Shown: positions 42,001 through 48,000 of the stretch, piece after piece
Numbering within the stretch: position 1 is the stretch's first letter
Layout of the letters: each line of letters opens with the position of its first letter
IMG/VR virus record: IMGVR_UViG_2654588045_000001
From: a virus
Lineage: Duplodnaviria; Heunggongvirae; Uroviricota; Caudoviricetes
DNA length: 64,000 nt
Direction: 5' to 3' (one strand)
Made by a program: the position numbers

Positions 42001-45000
42001 GAGGACGTTTGCCGCAGACGATTTCCACACCGATTGAGCGCAGAGAGGCCGCTGCATTGGCGCTGTATACGGAATCGTTGGTTTCGAGGTCGTGGTTGCC
42101 GGCCAGCATAACCACTTCGAGGCCCAACTCTTTGATGATCCACTCGTAAGTTTCGGTCACGAAATGCAGGACGGAAGGCGATATAGCACCACGAACATGG
42201 AAAGTATCACCAGCCACCAGCATGTGCTTGCAGCCCGCAGCTTTCATGGCTTTGGCAGCTTCTTTCGTGGCATCCAGTTGGATCTCCAGTCGAGAGTTCA
42301 GCCCGTCAGCGTTTGTTGTCGCAAAAGCATCCCAACGATGATAATGGGGATCTGATATCACCCCGTATGGCAATGTCATGTGTCTTTTCCTTTGTGGTTA
42401 TTTTGATACAGATATTAAGCGTGCTTGAGAGGCGAACAACCCAGACAACACGGCACAGAAGAAAATCTACAGGCACATGATTATGACAAAATACATAAGT
42501 AAGTGAATACCTATTTTCATGGCGGTAATGATTTCTAAATGTAACGAGCAACTCTTCGTCACGTCAGAATTTATAGGCATGTCTCTAGAATCCGCTCTCA
42601 GCAGTCTGGGCTTTCGTCACTGGCAATGGACCGAGATCTGCGCATTCGAGGCTGCCTTACCGGCGCTTATGCTTATCCATTTGCTGGTAAAAATGAGCCA
42701 GTTATTCGCCAGATAGCCAGAATGCTTTCTACTTTATTATCATTACCCATTTTTTTAAACTCTTACGAACTGTTCACAGTAAGAGGTAAATATTATGTTC
42801 AGATGCTTGGCTTTAACCGTTTCACTTGCATTTATCCTGCCCGGCGCCCTACACGCGGCGGATACCCGGGAATCAAGCTCATCTATCAGGGATATTAACG
42901 TCATTACTTTTCAGGGGGGGTGGAACCTGCCTGTTTGGGTTGCCCAGGAAAAAGGCTTTTTCAGAAAAAATGGTCTTAATGTGAAAATGGATTACACACC
43001 CAATTCCGGTCAACTGGTCAGAAACCTGCTGAATGGCAAGTATAATATTGCAGTAGCAGGTATTGATAACGTCATCGCGTATCAAGAGGGCCAGGTGAAA
43101 GAGCCGGTAGTGAATCCGGATATGTTCGCGTTTTATGGAGTGGATAACGGGCTTCTTTCATTAGTTGCTAACCCTCAAATTAAGAACATCAGTGATCTTA
43201 AAGGAAAACAAGTTTCAGTCGACGCTTTGACCACTGGCTATGCCTTTGTTATCCGGAATTATCTTGAGAAAAACGGGCTGACACAAAATGATGTCCACTA
43301 TACAAGTGTTGGCAGTACGAATGATCGCTTTAATGCACTTCTCGCCGGTAAGACAGATGCAACACTTCTCCGTACTCCATTAAATCTGCAGGCGAAAGAA
43401 AATGGGTTTAAGATCCTTGCCTCCGGAAGTGAACTTGGCGACTATCAGGGCACAACTGGCATTACAACCCGCTCCTGGGCGGCTCAGAATGGTGATATTC
43501 TGGTAAGTTACATCCGTAGCTATATCGACGGACTGAACTGGATTTATGACCCCCGTAACCAAAAAGAAGCAGAAGAAATTCTGGTCAAAAAGGCACCAGG
43601 AATGACGGCGGAGCTGGCAGGACCTGCATTACAGGAATTACTTAACAATGGGCTGCAACGGGATGCTGCTATTAATGCAGAAGGGGTAAAAAATGTTCTA
43701 CTGTTGCGAAGCAGGCTTGCTAAGCCAGAGAAAAATCTGACAGATACGCATAAATATTATGATACCAGCTATTATCAGAAAGCAGTGGGCTTAAACAAGC
43801 AAGAAACAGGCAAATAGTCTCATTACAGGCGGTTGTCTACTGGACAATCGCCTATTTACCTGGAGTGCATTACTATTATTTATGTGATGCGTACCAGTAA
43901 ACATGTACCTGTTTTAACCTAGTACATATTTTTCTTCTGACCACTACTGAGATCCTAATCTCTCTCGTACTGTTTTTGTGACAGATATTTTACTGTCACT
44001 ATGATTAACGGGGGCTGCAAATTAAAAACCGGCCCTGCTCGTTCGTCTTCATTGCCAGCTTGGTCTGCCACAGCCGCCGCCCTTGAATAAAATTCACTCA
44101 TGTATTAATCCCTAAAGCTCTCAGTGTCTTTCTAAGACACCATATTTTATGCCCCGGTAAAACCATGAGTTTACGTTTAAAACGTCTCAGAGGGCTTCTG
44201 ACGCGCTACGCTGATGTCGATTACCCCAGCTTTTGGGCGAGGGTCGACAAGATTCAACTCTTCAGCACTGTGATACTCCGTATCGAACTCCCGATCGACA
44301 TGGCGAATGTAGATGGCCGTGAGAAGGCTGTCGTCGTTCAGGAAGTGTCCGTAGGATTTGCGGATCACTTCGCCAACCTTATCAATCTTCTCTCCGCCCA
44401 TGCAGAGATGGTTAAACCGGCTGTGTTTCCGCAGCATCTCATCCACGGGGCCGGAGTAGACTTTATCGACTCTCCCGAACCGGATGATATTTCCAGTATC
44501 AGCCTCAACCAGACAAACGAGCTTGCCAGGTTCGACCCGGTCTCGCCATGTTACACCAGAGCGGAGCGTGTTGAAGTAGGGTGCGTCCAATCCGATGATC
44601 GGTTTACGAAATGCCAGCAGTGGCACGTAACGTATGCAGCTGTTCAAGTGGATATGCAGCTGTTCAAGTGGAAGTGCGCACCGGCGTCGTAGAGTTTGAG
44701 CCGAGTTTCGTTAATCGGGCACTTCGACGCTATGCCGCATAGGTCGCAGAGCAATTTCTGTTTGTTCAGGATAGTGTTCGATTCAATGGTGTAGGAGCCA
44801 TCTTCAAGACGGCGAACCCAGCGCGTGCGTTTGAGATCCATAATTCTTATTCAAATAGTTTTGTCCGGGGCAACGATAACTGACAAGGCGCACCGATGTT
44901 TGCAAATGCCTGTTTTACTTATACCCATTATTCACAGGACCGATCCAATAATTAGATCCCCAGAGAGATCCTACAGAAGATCAAAAGAGATCCCCGATCG

Positions 45001-48000
45001 TCTCCAGCCGTTGCGGTTACTGGCCTGAGAGGGGGTTACTATCCACTATGGGGAGCAAAGTAACCTCTGTAGAGAGCATAATAACCGCTATGAAGAGCAA
45101 AACAACCTCTCTGGAGAGTGGTCGGTATCCACTGTAGTGAGTAGGAGGCATTGTCTTGACTGGATAACTCTTTGCCTGTTTTTCTGTGTTAGATAGCTGA
45201 TATTCATGGATATATCGTTAATCTTGCGTTCAGGCGTGTTTGTTTCCACCACACATTATCCCCAGAAAGGGAGTGATGGCTGGTTTTGCAATTACCTGAT
45301 TTTTATACACAGGCCCGATCCAGTAATTCAGATCCCAAATAGAACCAAAGAGACCCACAAAGACCCAAAAAGATCCCCGCATCCCGCAAACCGTTGTGCC
45401 ATCTGGCCTCAGAGGTGATCGATATCCACTATAGAGAGAAGATCAGCCACTATGAAGAGTAAACCAACCACTGTAGAGAGTAGAAAAACCACTATAGGCG
45501 GTAGGATAACCGCTGTGATGAGTGCTAATATCCACTGTAATCAGCAAAGGCCACCAAAGCCGTCGAATAAAAAGAGACACTTGGAATGAGCGAAAACGGC
45601 AATAAAAACATAGCGATCGTTGAAGCATTCTCAGAAACAGACAAAAAGACAGGCGAAGTTGTTACGTTAGTTCCTAACACCAACAACACTGTTCAGCCCG
45701 TTGCTCTGATGCGTCTTGGTCTCTTCGTTCCGACGCTGAAATCGACGTCCAGGGGCAGGAAGGGGCAAATGGTCTCTATGGACGCCTCTGCTGAACTCAA
45801 ACAGCTGTCTCTGGCCAAAGCCGAAGGGTATGAGGACATAAGGATCTCCGGCGTTCGTCTGGATATGGATAACGACTTTAAAACGTGGGTAGGCATCATC
45901 CACGCGTTCGCCAAGCACAAGGTTGTTGGCGACACTGTCACGTTACCGTTCGTCGAGTTCGTCAGGCTCTGTGGCATACCAACGGCCAGATCGTCCGCGA
46001 AGTTACGTAAGCGCCTGGACAGTTCTCTAACTCGTATCGCCACAAACACTATCTCATTCCGCAGTAAAGGCTCTGATGAGTATTACGTAACTCACCTTGT
46101 GCAGACAGCAAAGTACAGCACTAAGAACGACACGGTCTCGCTGCAGGCTGATCCTAAGATTTTCGAACTCTACCAGTTCGACAAAAAGGTTCTTCTGCAA
46201 CTCCGGGCAATCAACGAACTCTCCAGAAAAGAATCCGCCCAGGCACTCTACACATTCATCGAAAGTTTGCCACCTGACCCGGCACCAATCTCGTTGGCTC
46301 GCTTACGCGCCAGACTTAACTTAACCAGCCGCACCATTACCCAGAACGCGACTGTCAGGAAGGCGATGGAGCAGCTGCGGGAGATCGGCTATCTCGATTA
46401 CACCGAAGTGAAGCGCGGCAGCTCGGTCTACTTCATCATCCACTATAGGCGGCCGAAGTTACGCCCGGCATTGCCACCAACTAAAGCTGCGCCGGAAGAA
46501 CCAGAAGAGCAGGAAGATAACTTGCCTGGCGATGGTCAGGAGGACATCATCGATGTTGTTCCTGAAGAAAAAGACGGTGAGATGGTCATGTTGAGCAAGG
46601 AAGAACTGGCGATTCTCGAAGAGCTGCGCAAGGCAAAGGCTCGCAAATAGCCCAATCACTGTAGAGAGTAGAAAGGCTCACTATCCGCTGTAGTGGGCCT
46701 TTTGTTTATCTGAAGTCCGCTATCCACTGTAGTGAGTAACAACAACCGAATAGTAACCACTGTAGGCAGTAGCGCTCAAATAACGAAATGAATGTTAGTG
46801 GTTACAAACCTAGATGAAACAAGGGCTGCGAGGTTAGTGGTCACTGGGTGACTTGTTAAATCCACTCTCTATAGTGGTTATCGTTGCTCCCTTCGCTATT
46901 GGCTATCCACTATGGAGAGCAGAATCGGTTGGCTGGATTTACTATCCACTGTGGAGAGTAGACATCCGCTGAAAACAGTGAAGGTTTACTCTCCATAGTG
47001 GATACCCGCTGGAGGTCGCATTCCATCACTCTCCATAGTGGTTGTTTGCTGTGAATGAACGCCTGTTTACTCTCTACAGTGGATAGTGAAGTCGATAATC
47101 ACCACTTTACTCACTACAGTGGATACCGGATGCCACGGCAGCCGTTTTACTCACTACAGTGGTTATGACCCAGATACGCGCGCGGTGAGCTGGCTACTCA
47201 CCGCAGTGGTTGGTGTTATCAGTGGATTTTCTTCAGCAGACCCCAGAGCGTTCCGGCCTTCGTCGTGAGCTTACCTGTTTCCGGATCGTACATGCGCCAC
47301 TCGCGACGCTGGTGGATAATGACACCGTCCTCACGTTCCAGTCGCTCCAGCACGCCGGGCTGTTTAAACCCTTTGGCACGCCAGTAGCCGCTTGTTTTTT
47401 CGATTTCAAGACCTGCCATTGTAACCGCCATCAACCAACCTCCTTGCAGTCATCGAAAAGGTAGCTGGCGTTCTTCGCGTGAACGCCGTAAACATCACCT
47501 GATTTGTCGTAAACGAACTTATCTTCACCCACGCCAGACAGTTTGCCGTTACGTCTGGTGAGATAGGGTGAAGACAGGACGCGATCATCGCGCACGACAT
47601 AAAACTGTTCGCCGCTGTCCACAATCATCGCGCCGTAGTTAGCTTTGACGACGTTGCAGATCTCGTCGTTTTTCACTTCGGCCACAGACATTTCACACTC
47701 ATAGACATGTGTGTTCGCGTAGACAGGGAGAGTGAACAGTGCCAGAGCCAGGGCTGTTTTCTTCATGCCACGACTCCTTGGATAACGCCGAATGCTGAGT
47801 CGAATAACAGCACTACGGCCAGCGCATTAATCATCGCGCTATTAACAGGCGCCAGCGCTTTATGGATTACTCCGGTGAAGATGCAATCGAGCACAAAAGC
47901 TATCGAGATAATAAGTAATAAGGTGTCTAATACGGTTTTCATGATAGTTAAATACTAACTTATATATTATTTGCTGTAAATATCACTCAAAAGTGCTGAT

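Follow-up and report, generated by a model that had tools for sequence, protein, structure and literature searches.

The window analyzed here is a 64,000-nucleotide stretch of DNA from a tailed virus (IMG/VR record IMGVR_UViG_2654588045_000001), and its subject is the replicon at positions 44900-47230, built around the initiator gene repA. This replicon is that of the Yersinia pestis plasmid pMT1, a replication region of the P1/RepFIB type that was already known. Upstream of repA it contains two successive and homologous modules, a distal one (M1, 44915-45145) and a proximal one (M2, 45295-45548). Sequence comparison of related replicons suggests that M1 is probably the origin proper and that M2 probably serves as the repA operator and promoter, the two having diverged after an old tandem duplication. 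This explanation ranked first among those considered.

Two homologous modules upstream of repA

The distal module M1 is made up of DnaA boxes, six GATC sites, and five iterons. Two tandem DnaA boxes lie at its left end on the plus strand (44919-44936), TTATACCCA at 44919-44927 with one mismatch and TTATTCACA at 44928-44936 with no mismatches to TTATNCACA. They are followed by a Dam-site cluster (44942-44999), in which six GATC sites, at 44942, 44955, 44967, 44979, 44989, and 44996, are packed into 58 base pairs (bp) as (A)GATCC(C) heptamers; the mean density of GATC in the window is 4.7 per kilobase (kb). The M1 iteron array (45037-45143, plus strand) has five iterons, starting at 45037, 45058, 45079, 45100, and 45123, with 21-bp phasing.

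The proximal module M2 has a DnaA box, three GATC sites, and six iterons. The box, TTATACACA at 45303-45311 on the plus strand, also has no mismatches to TTATNCACA and aligns with 44928-44936 of M1. The heptamer cluster that follows (45317-45378) has GATC at 45317, 45331, and 45372. Former GATC positions are occupied by GAACC at 45342 and by GACCC at 45352 and 45362, with the 10-bp spacing kept, and these non-GATC variants are also present in the phage-plasmid SSU5 and the Escherichia coli phage Cyrano and in part in Rahnella. The M2 iteron array, the presumed repA operator, extends over 45420-45546 on the plus strand, with iterons at 45420, 45441, 45462, 45483, 45504, and 45526. The spacer between the modules (45146-45294) has changed at a rate close to neutral; a DnaA-like 9-mer, TTATCCCCA, is found in it at 45256-45264.

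Global alignment of M1 (44915-45150) with M2 (45290-45552) gave 76% identity over 228 columns. The alignment score was 214, compared with 77 ± 8 for shuffled sequences, about 17 standard deviations above them. Relative to M1, M2 has one additional heptamer unit and one additional iteron. M1 and M2 are thus true homologues. An earlier note on this DNA, made from the sequence by eye, had described two successive origin modules with GATC clusters of six and three sites and five to six iterons each, and the alignment and the counts bear this out, with the clusters at 44942-44999 and 45317-45375. Both DnaA-like 9-mers that it named exist, but their coordinates were one base off (44928-44936 and 45256-45264), and the second, TTATCCCCA, is not the box of M2; the true counterpart is TTATACACA.

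The iterons were located by a position-weight scan together with a degenerate 17-mer search, which gave 24 in total, 11 upstream of repA (5 in M1 and 6 in M2) and 13 downstream, so that iterons flank the gene on both sides as had been noted. The degenerate 17-mer matched 32 times in the window, compared with 6.2 ± 2.4 times in shuffled sequences, and 26 of the 32 matches were in 45041-47211. A 13-mer, TGCCTGTTTTaCT, found at 44907 and 45173 was considered as a boundary of the duplication and was dropped, its recurrence being at chance level by the estimate made for it.

Divergence of the modules and the proposed division of labor

Both modules were also detected in SSU5, in Cyrano, in the conjugative Rahnella aceris plasmid pPlas1, and in a plasmid of Pantoea sp. 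Lij88. Comparison of 44900-45585 with PLSDB gave 335 records with a coverage of at least 80%, and no natural single-module deletion variant was found in the SSU5/pMT1 clade (335 two-module records versus 345 matching the replicon). For a wider survey, 80 loci were taken from a one-genome-per-species collection, and the iteron motif was derived de novo for each locus. Among the 77 loci with enough upstream sequence, two phased arrays were detected in 40, one in 33, and none in 4; array calling was heuristic, and a few of the one-array and no-array loci had on inspection a distal module followed by irregular proximal iterons. The two-array loci came from Kluyvera, Buttiauxella, Rahnella, Erwinia, Pantoea, Franconibacter, Cedecea, and Xenorhabdus. 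The duplicated module had been called unusual, but these numbers indicate that a large RepA subfamily has it as the usual arrangement. The start of the proximal array is at about -140 from repA in nearly all loci, a position also seen in single-module replicons, and that of the distal array is between -318 and -560.

The rate of change in the two modules was estimated by comparing pMT1 with Cyrano. The four-fold degenerate sites of repA, taken as the neutral proxy, were 64% identical, and the spacer was 61% identical. Identity was 81% in the M1 core and 86% in the M1 iterons, and it was 89% in both the core and the iterons of M2 and 95% in the leader. This indicates that both modules are constrained and have changed more slowly than the spacer or the repA four-fold sites.

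The two modules differed consistently in their Dam sites. When GATC was counted in the 130 bp before each array of the 40 two-array loci, the mean was 5.6 in the distal and 3.7 in the proximal module, compared with 6.3 in single-module origins. The distal count was the higher one in 35 loci, equal in 5, and lower in none (Wilcoxon p = 1.8e-7, over loci that are related and hence not independent samples). A strong Dam cluster, defined as at least four GATC sites in at most 75 bp, was present in the distal module of 45 of the 46 loci with a pMT1-like long RepA and in the proximal module of 22; both modules had one in 21 loci, the distal module only in 24, and the proximal module only in 1. In several lineages, the proximal region has iterons and not a single GATC. 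The DnaA boxes followed the same direction. A perfect TTATNCACA to the left of the heptamers was found in 28 of the 40 distal modules and in 9 of the 40 proximal ones, and a box with at most one mismatch to the right of the iterons was found in 34 and 20, respectively. Furthermore, thousands of single-module plasmids of the IncFIB type align to the M1 core (about 44902-45047), at 76 to 82% identity, and not to that of M2. Of the two cores, that of M1 was the nearer to single-module origins in all two-module taxa examined.

A candidate repA promoter was found in M2. An extended -10 element, TGcTAATAT (TGCTAATAT), lies at 45523-45531 on the plus strand, between the last two M2 iterons and 63 bp 5' of the repA ATG. 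The M1 array has no promoter-like -10 element, the equivalent sequence there being TGGTCGGTAT. The element was first spotted by eye and was then tested across the loci as TGnTAnnnT, which occurred in the proximal array of 36 of the 40 two-module loci and in the distal array of 1. In nearly all of them, the proximal element is at -62 or -63 from the repA ATG.

A division of labor consistent with these differences can be outlined. M1 and M2 would both go back to a single old duplication, in tandem, of an entire origin of the P1 type, in an iteron-controlled replicon of the theta type whose RepA would bind all 24 iterons. At M1, DnaA together with RepA would separate the strands in the methylated heptamers. 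M2 would act mainly as the promoter and operator through which RepA represses its own synthesis, and its iterons would in addition titrate RepA and pair with those of M1 and of the downstream array (handcuffing). Copy number and incompatibility would be set by the latter array, as by incA in P1 and by the E-K iterons in RepFIB. The distal copy would thus have retained everything an origin needs and nothing that a promoter needs, and the proximal copy, retaining promoter and iterons, would tolerate the loss of Dam sites and DnaA boxes. We infer which module fires, and the looping or handcuffing between arrays, from the comparisons described above. The earlier note had suggested that the duplication may tune copy number or incompatibility; the differences seen across related loci favor a probable split of origin from operator over mere copy-number tuning.

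The next-ranked explanation, considered unlikely, is that M2 is both the working origin and the operator, as in the canonical P1 arrangement, and that M1 is an accessory cis element, either an iteron bank for titration or handcuffing or an enhancer for the loading of DnaA or RepA. Several observations agree with it or weigh against M1 as the origin proper. M2 is in the canonical origin position, its array starting at about -140 from repA as in single-module relatives. The M2 of pMT1 retains three or four GATC sites and a DnaA box without mismatches, and between pMT1 and Cyrano its core is conserved no less than the M1 core (89% versus 81%). Because these features are kept, the split may be incomplete in pMT1, and a residual origin activity of M2 or another constrained role is possible. 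Accessory iteron sets do occur in the family, as IncFIB(K) plasmids have extra upstream iterons without Dam sites. The repA promoter in M2 is a motif prediction, and a scan for consensus sigma-70 -35/-10 elements gave no convincing repA promoter. The survey counts and the Wilcoxon p value overstate independence because the loci are phylogenetically related. In a tree of origin cores, all M2 cores grouped together, which fits a single old duplication, but in only 131 of 300 bootstraps (44%), and the argument is for this reason not rested on the tree. What favors M1 as the origin over an accessory role is that a pure titration or handcuffing bank needs neither DnaA boxes nor Dam heptamers, and the downstream array has none of the latter's GATC sites, whereas M1 keeps both boxes and heptamers in 45 of the 46 related loci. 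In addition, the lineages whose proximal cluster has fallen to zero GATC must still replicate, and the family-wide origin consensus is matched by the M1 core and not by the M2 core.

Ranked third, and apparently more improbable still, is that M1 and M2 both work as origins, redundantly or each in its own circumstances, such as a particular Dam, SeqA, or DnaA status, a particular host, or maintenance as a plasmid as opposed to phage development. The modules of pMT1, SSU5, and Cyrano each have a DnaA box, heptamers, and a full phased array, both are under purifying selection, and strong Dam clusters in both were seen in 21 of 46 loci. However, GATC sites and DnaA boxes have consistently been lost on one side, that of the proximal copy, which speaks against equal roles. 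The layout is also not a phage-specific device because ordinary non-phage plasmids of Rahnella, Pantoea, Erwinia, and Xenorhabdus share it. The second module could finally be a functionless relic of the duplication or an assembly artefact, in line with the loss of half of the GATC sites from M2. This was ranked last and is very hard to reconcile with a replicon sequence that is invariant across dozens of independent Y. pestis assemblies, with the conservation of both modules well above the neutral proxy, or with their persistence at RepA identities of 62 to 76%, where four-fold sites are saturated.

The initiator, the downstream array, and related replicons

The repA gene (45586-46650, plus strand) encodes a Rep_3-family initiator of 354 amino acids, with WH1 and WH2 domains. 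The protein matched the Pfam profiles Rep3_N (E = 7e-11; 43.1 bits, cut-off 22.4) and Rep3_C (E = 4e-4; 21.0 bits, slightly below the cut-off of 21.1). The assignment to Rep_3, on which the earlier identification of the replicon depended, is thus upheld by the profile search; an NCBIfam scan of RepA and the neighboring proteins gave no match. The protein was 47.5% identical to RepA of P1 and P7 over amino acids 40-293 (E about 1e-70) and 59 to 66% identical to E. coli IncFIB RepA over nearly the full length, the C-terminal tail included. RepA proteins of Rahnella and some Pantoea plasmids were 71 to 76% identical. The close match to P1 RepA that had been claimed therefore holds as homology within Rep_3, but the identity is moderate and confined to part of the protein, and the replicon is of the RepFIB/P1 type and nearer to RepFIB than to P1. 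In an alignment of nine family members, 92 columns were invariant, and 38 of these fell within residues 188-254. An iteron-like 17-mer with three mismatches, ATCCACTATAGGCGGCC, is present within the repA coding sequence at 46438-46454 and may represent a chance match or an intragenic RepA site.

Downstream of repA, an incA-like array (46650-47215) has 13 iterons in both orientations, in agreement with the at least 10 that had been counted by eye. Six are on the plus strand (46650, 46679, 46718, 46751, 46901, and 46940) and seven on the minus strand (46863, 46987, 47027, 47068, 47108, 47148, and 47195), the last six of the latter (46987-47195) being spaced 40 to 47 bp apart. The array contains no GATC. 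A terminator-like hairpin with a T-run is located directly 3' of repA on the plus strand (46671-46703). RepA binding and termination could interfere there because the hairpin overlaps the iteron at 46679-46699. The downstream arrays of different replicons were compared over 46640-47240 of the window, 5841-6482 of locus L001, and 2546-3060 of locus L004. Relative to pMT1, array size changed by whole iteron-plus-spacer units, by +41 bp in SSU5 and by -37 and -67 bp in Cyrano, and the upstream two-module region had almost no indels among the three. A pair of 12-mers in the middle of the array, GTTAGTGGTTAC at 46794-46805 and GTTAGTGGTCAC at 46833-46844, 39 bp apart, holds a partial iteron core in reversed orientation; the second is invariant in SSU5 and Cyrano, and the first has two different bases in Cyrano. 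An Rfam scan gave a chance microRNA match only.

The initiator and the layout place the replicon in the Rep_3 iteron family of the P1/RepFIB type, and within that family the two-module layout is a variant architecture. In the P1 record, the order is DnaA boxes, five Dam sites, five incC iterons with PrepA, repA, and nine incA iterons. The alignment with P1 oriR, repA, and incA that had been proposed showed the same order element by element, and each pMT1 module repeats the DnaA boxes, GATC heptamers, and five or so iterons in 21-bp phasing. The tandem DnaA boxes of M1 match the tandem pair at the left end of P1 oriR, the M1 Dam cluster resembles the five annotated Dam sites of oriR, and the downstream array resembles incA, whose iterons scored in both orientations in the same scan. 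The difference is that P1 has 14 iterons and one module, with the repA promoter within the iterons of that module, whereas pMT1 has 24 iterons and two modules, with the predicted -10 element in the proximal one only. P1 and pMT1 iterons are unrelated in sequence (GATGTGTGCTGGAGGGA in P1 and TATCCACTGTAGAGAGT in pMT1), and pMT1 RepA has about 40 extra N-terminal residues and 60 extra acidic residues at the C terminus.

In P1, one set of iterons is used for both initiation and autorepression. According to the P1 work of Abeles, Brendler, Austin, and Chattoraj, the region of Dam sites reportedly has to be methylated, and strand opening reportedly takes place there. In pSC101 and in F ori2/repE, the initiator starts replication from one set of sites and represses its own synthesis from another, which is analogous to the model proposed for pMT1. 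The operator of these two plasmids is an inverted partial iteron, unlike the diverged copy of a whole origin in pMT1. Opening initiated by DnaA and assisted by RepA is summarized in PMC5043065.

RepFIB (F, P307, and pO157) is the closest well-studied plasmid replicon. It has origin iterons BCDD'D'' upstream and control iterons E-K downstream, the latter thought to handcuff, and it differs from pMT1 in that only one module of DnaA box, GATC sites, and iterons was seen in each of the E. coli IncFIB loci examined. For FIB replicons, the upstream region has been described as the origin and the downstream iterons as a control and incompatibility region that probably acts by handcuffing (PMC11983097). 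In the entry for Ni et al. (2008) tabulated in PMC6199537, the cloned pMT1 replicon displaced pMT1 by incompatibility, and 30% of the colonies were cured. The IncFIB(pHCM2)-type replicons of SSU5, pHCM2, and Cyrano are the same replicon with the same two modules, those of SSU5 and Cyrano differing from pMT1 in the number of downstream iterons.

The element and the meaning of the two-module layout

The region 44800-47300 of the window matched many Y. pestis pMT1/pFra plasmids with 100% nucleotide identity, and MOB-suite types pMT1 records as IncFIB. In pMT1 of strain CO92, genes for tail fibre, tape measure, major capsid protein, and large terminase are annotated upstream of repA, and pMT1 forms one group of the SSU5 phage-plasmid supergroup according to Pfeifer et al. 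(PMC7969092). The view that the element is a phage-plasmid is supported by these genes and by this grouping. The alignment to SSU5 and pHCM2 that had been suggested gave 95.5% nucleotide identity to SSU5 over 44900-47230, with flanking genes syntenic with those of SSU5 and pHCM2, indicating homology of the backbones. Cyrano and related E. coli plasmids were about 83% identical to 44800-47300, and genes with an ASCH domain and Cra-like genes flank the replicons of pMT1, SSU5, pHCM2, and Cyrano alike. The replicon and its family membership were already known, and the element has long been sequenced and is clinically famous.

The copy of pMT1 in the window contains insertion sequence (IS) elements, and at least one of its backbone genes is frameshifted. 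A 20-bp tandem duplication (two copies of TATGCAGCTGTTCAAGTGGA, 44633-44672) lies within the minus-strand ASCH-domain gene that adjoins the origin. It is present neither in CO92 pMT1 nor in SSU5, and it causes a frameshift that divides the 645-bp gene into open reading frames (ORFs) at 44644-44841 and 44177-44647. On the minus strand at 49311-49820, an ORF for an IS200/IS1541-type TnpA is found where CO92 and El Dorado pMT1 have an intact SPFH-domain gene. Because of this ORF, the window represents a pMT1 variant with an extra IS copy and not CO92 itself.

Only one module was found in P1, in the Klebsiella pKpn-type phage-plasmid pJN2-26, in a Pantoea vagans megaplasmid, and in the E. coli IncFIB and Klebsiella IncFIB(K) plasmids examined. 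The origin cores of P1, pJN2-26, Pantoea, IncFIB, and IncFIB(K) could be aligned with the pMT1 modules. In one Klebsiella IncFIB(K) plasmid (locus L010, 1199-1449), four extra iterons, two direct and two inverted, precede the DnaA/GATC core. They have no Dam-site cluster of their own and represent a different accessory iteron set in the same family. In pJN2-26 (locus L005, 1040-1400), the junction between the ASCH-domain gene and the origin, TGCCTGTTTTACTTATCCAC, is kept, and the RepA is a different one (51% identical), the iterons are different, and there is a single module. This suggests that the replicon was swapped within a conserved slot in pKpn-type members of the SSU5 supergroup.

The searchable literature contained no account of the anatomy of this origin, of a two-module layout, or of its asymmetric decay; the early pMT1/pFra papers, outside this coverage, may mention two upstream iteron clusters. 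A 2026 preprint on phage-plasmid copy-number mutants proved to be unrelated, as it deals with a CopA/CopT (IncFII-like) replicon. It is put forward tentatively, with some doubt, that an ancient tandem duplication of the whole origin has become subfunctionalized across a large RepFIB-like subfamily, the distal copy being the origin that depends on Dam and DnaA and the proximal copy, turned into the repA operator and promoter, progressively shedding Dam sites; this would then also be a feature that has not been described. The subfamily meant comprises pMT1, pHCM2, SSU5-type phage-plasmids, and many plasmids of Pantoea, Erwinia, Rahnella, and Xenorhabdus.

In Y. pestis the replicon maintains pMT1, and in Salmonella, E. 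coli, and Enterobacter it does the same for the pHCM2/SSU5 phage-plasmids. It is otherwise ordinary, and its two-module layout is of moderate interest to specialists in plasmid replication. The choice of the cloned segment matters when pMT1-type and IncFIB(pHCM2) plasmids are to be cured by incompatibility, and it bears on replicon typing and mini-replicon design as well. If the division between an M1 origin and an M2 operator is true, initiation would be uncoupled from autorepression, two functions that share iterons in P1 and RepFIB. The proximal Dam clusters, ranging from intact to absent, form a natural series of evolutionary intermediates, which may serve in testing how the autoregulatory operator of an iteron replicon becomes separated from the origin.

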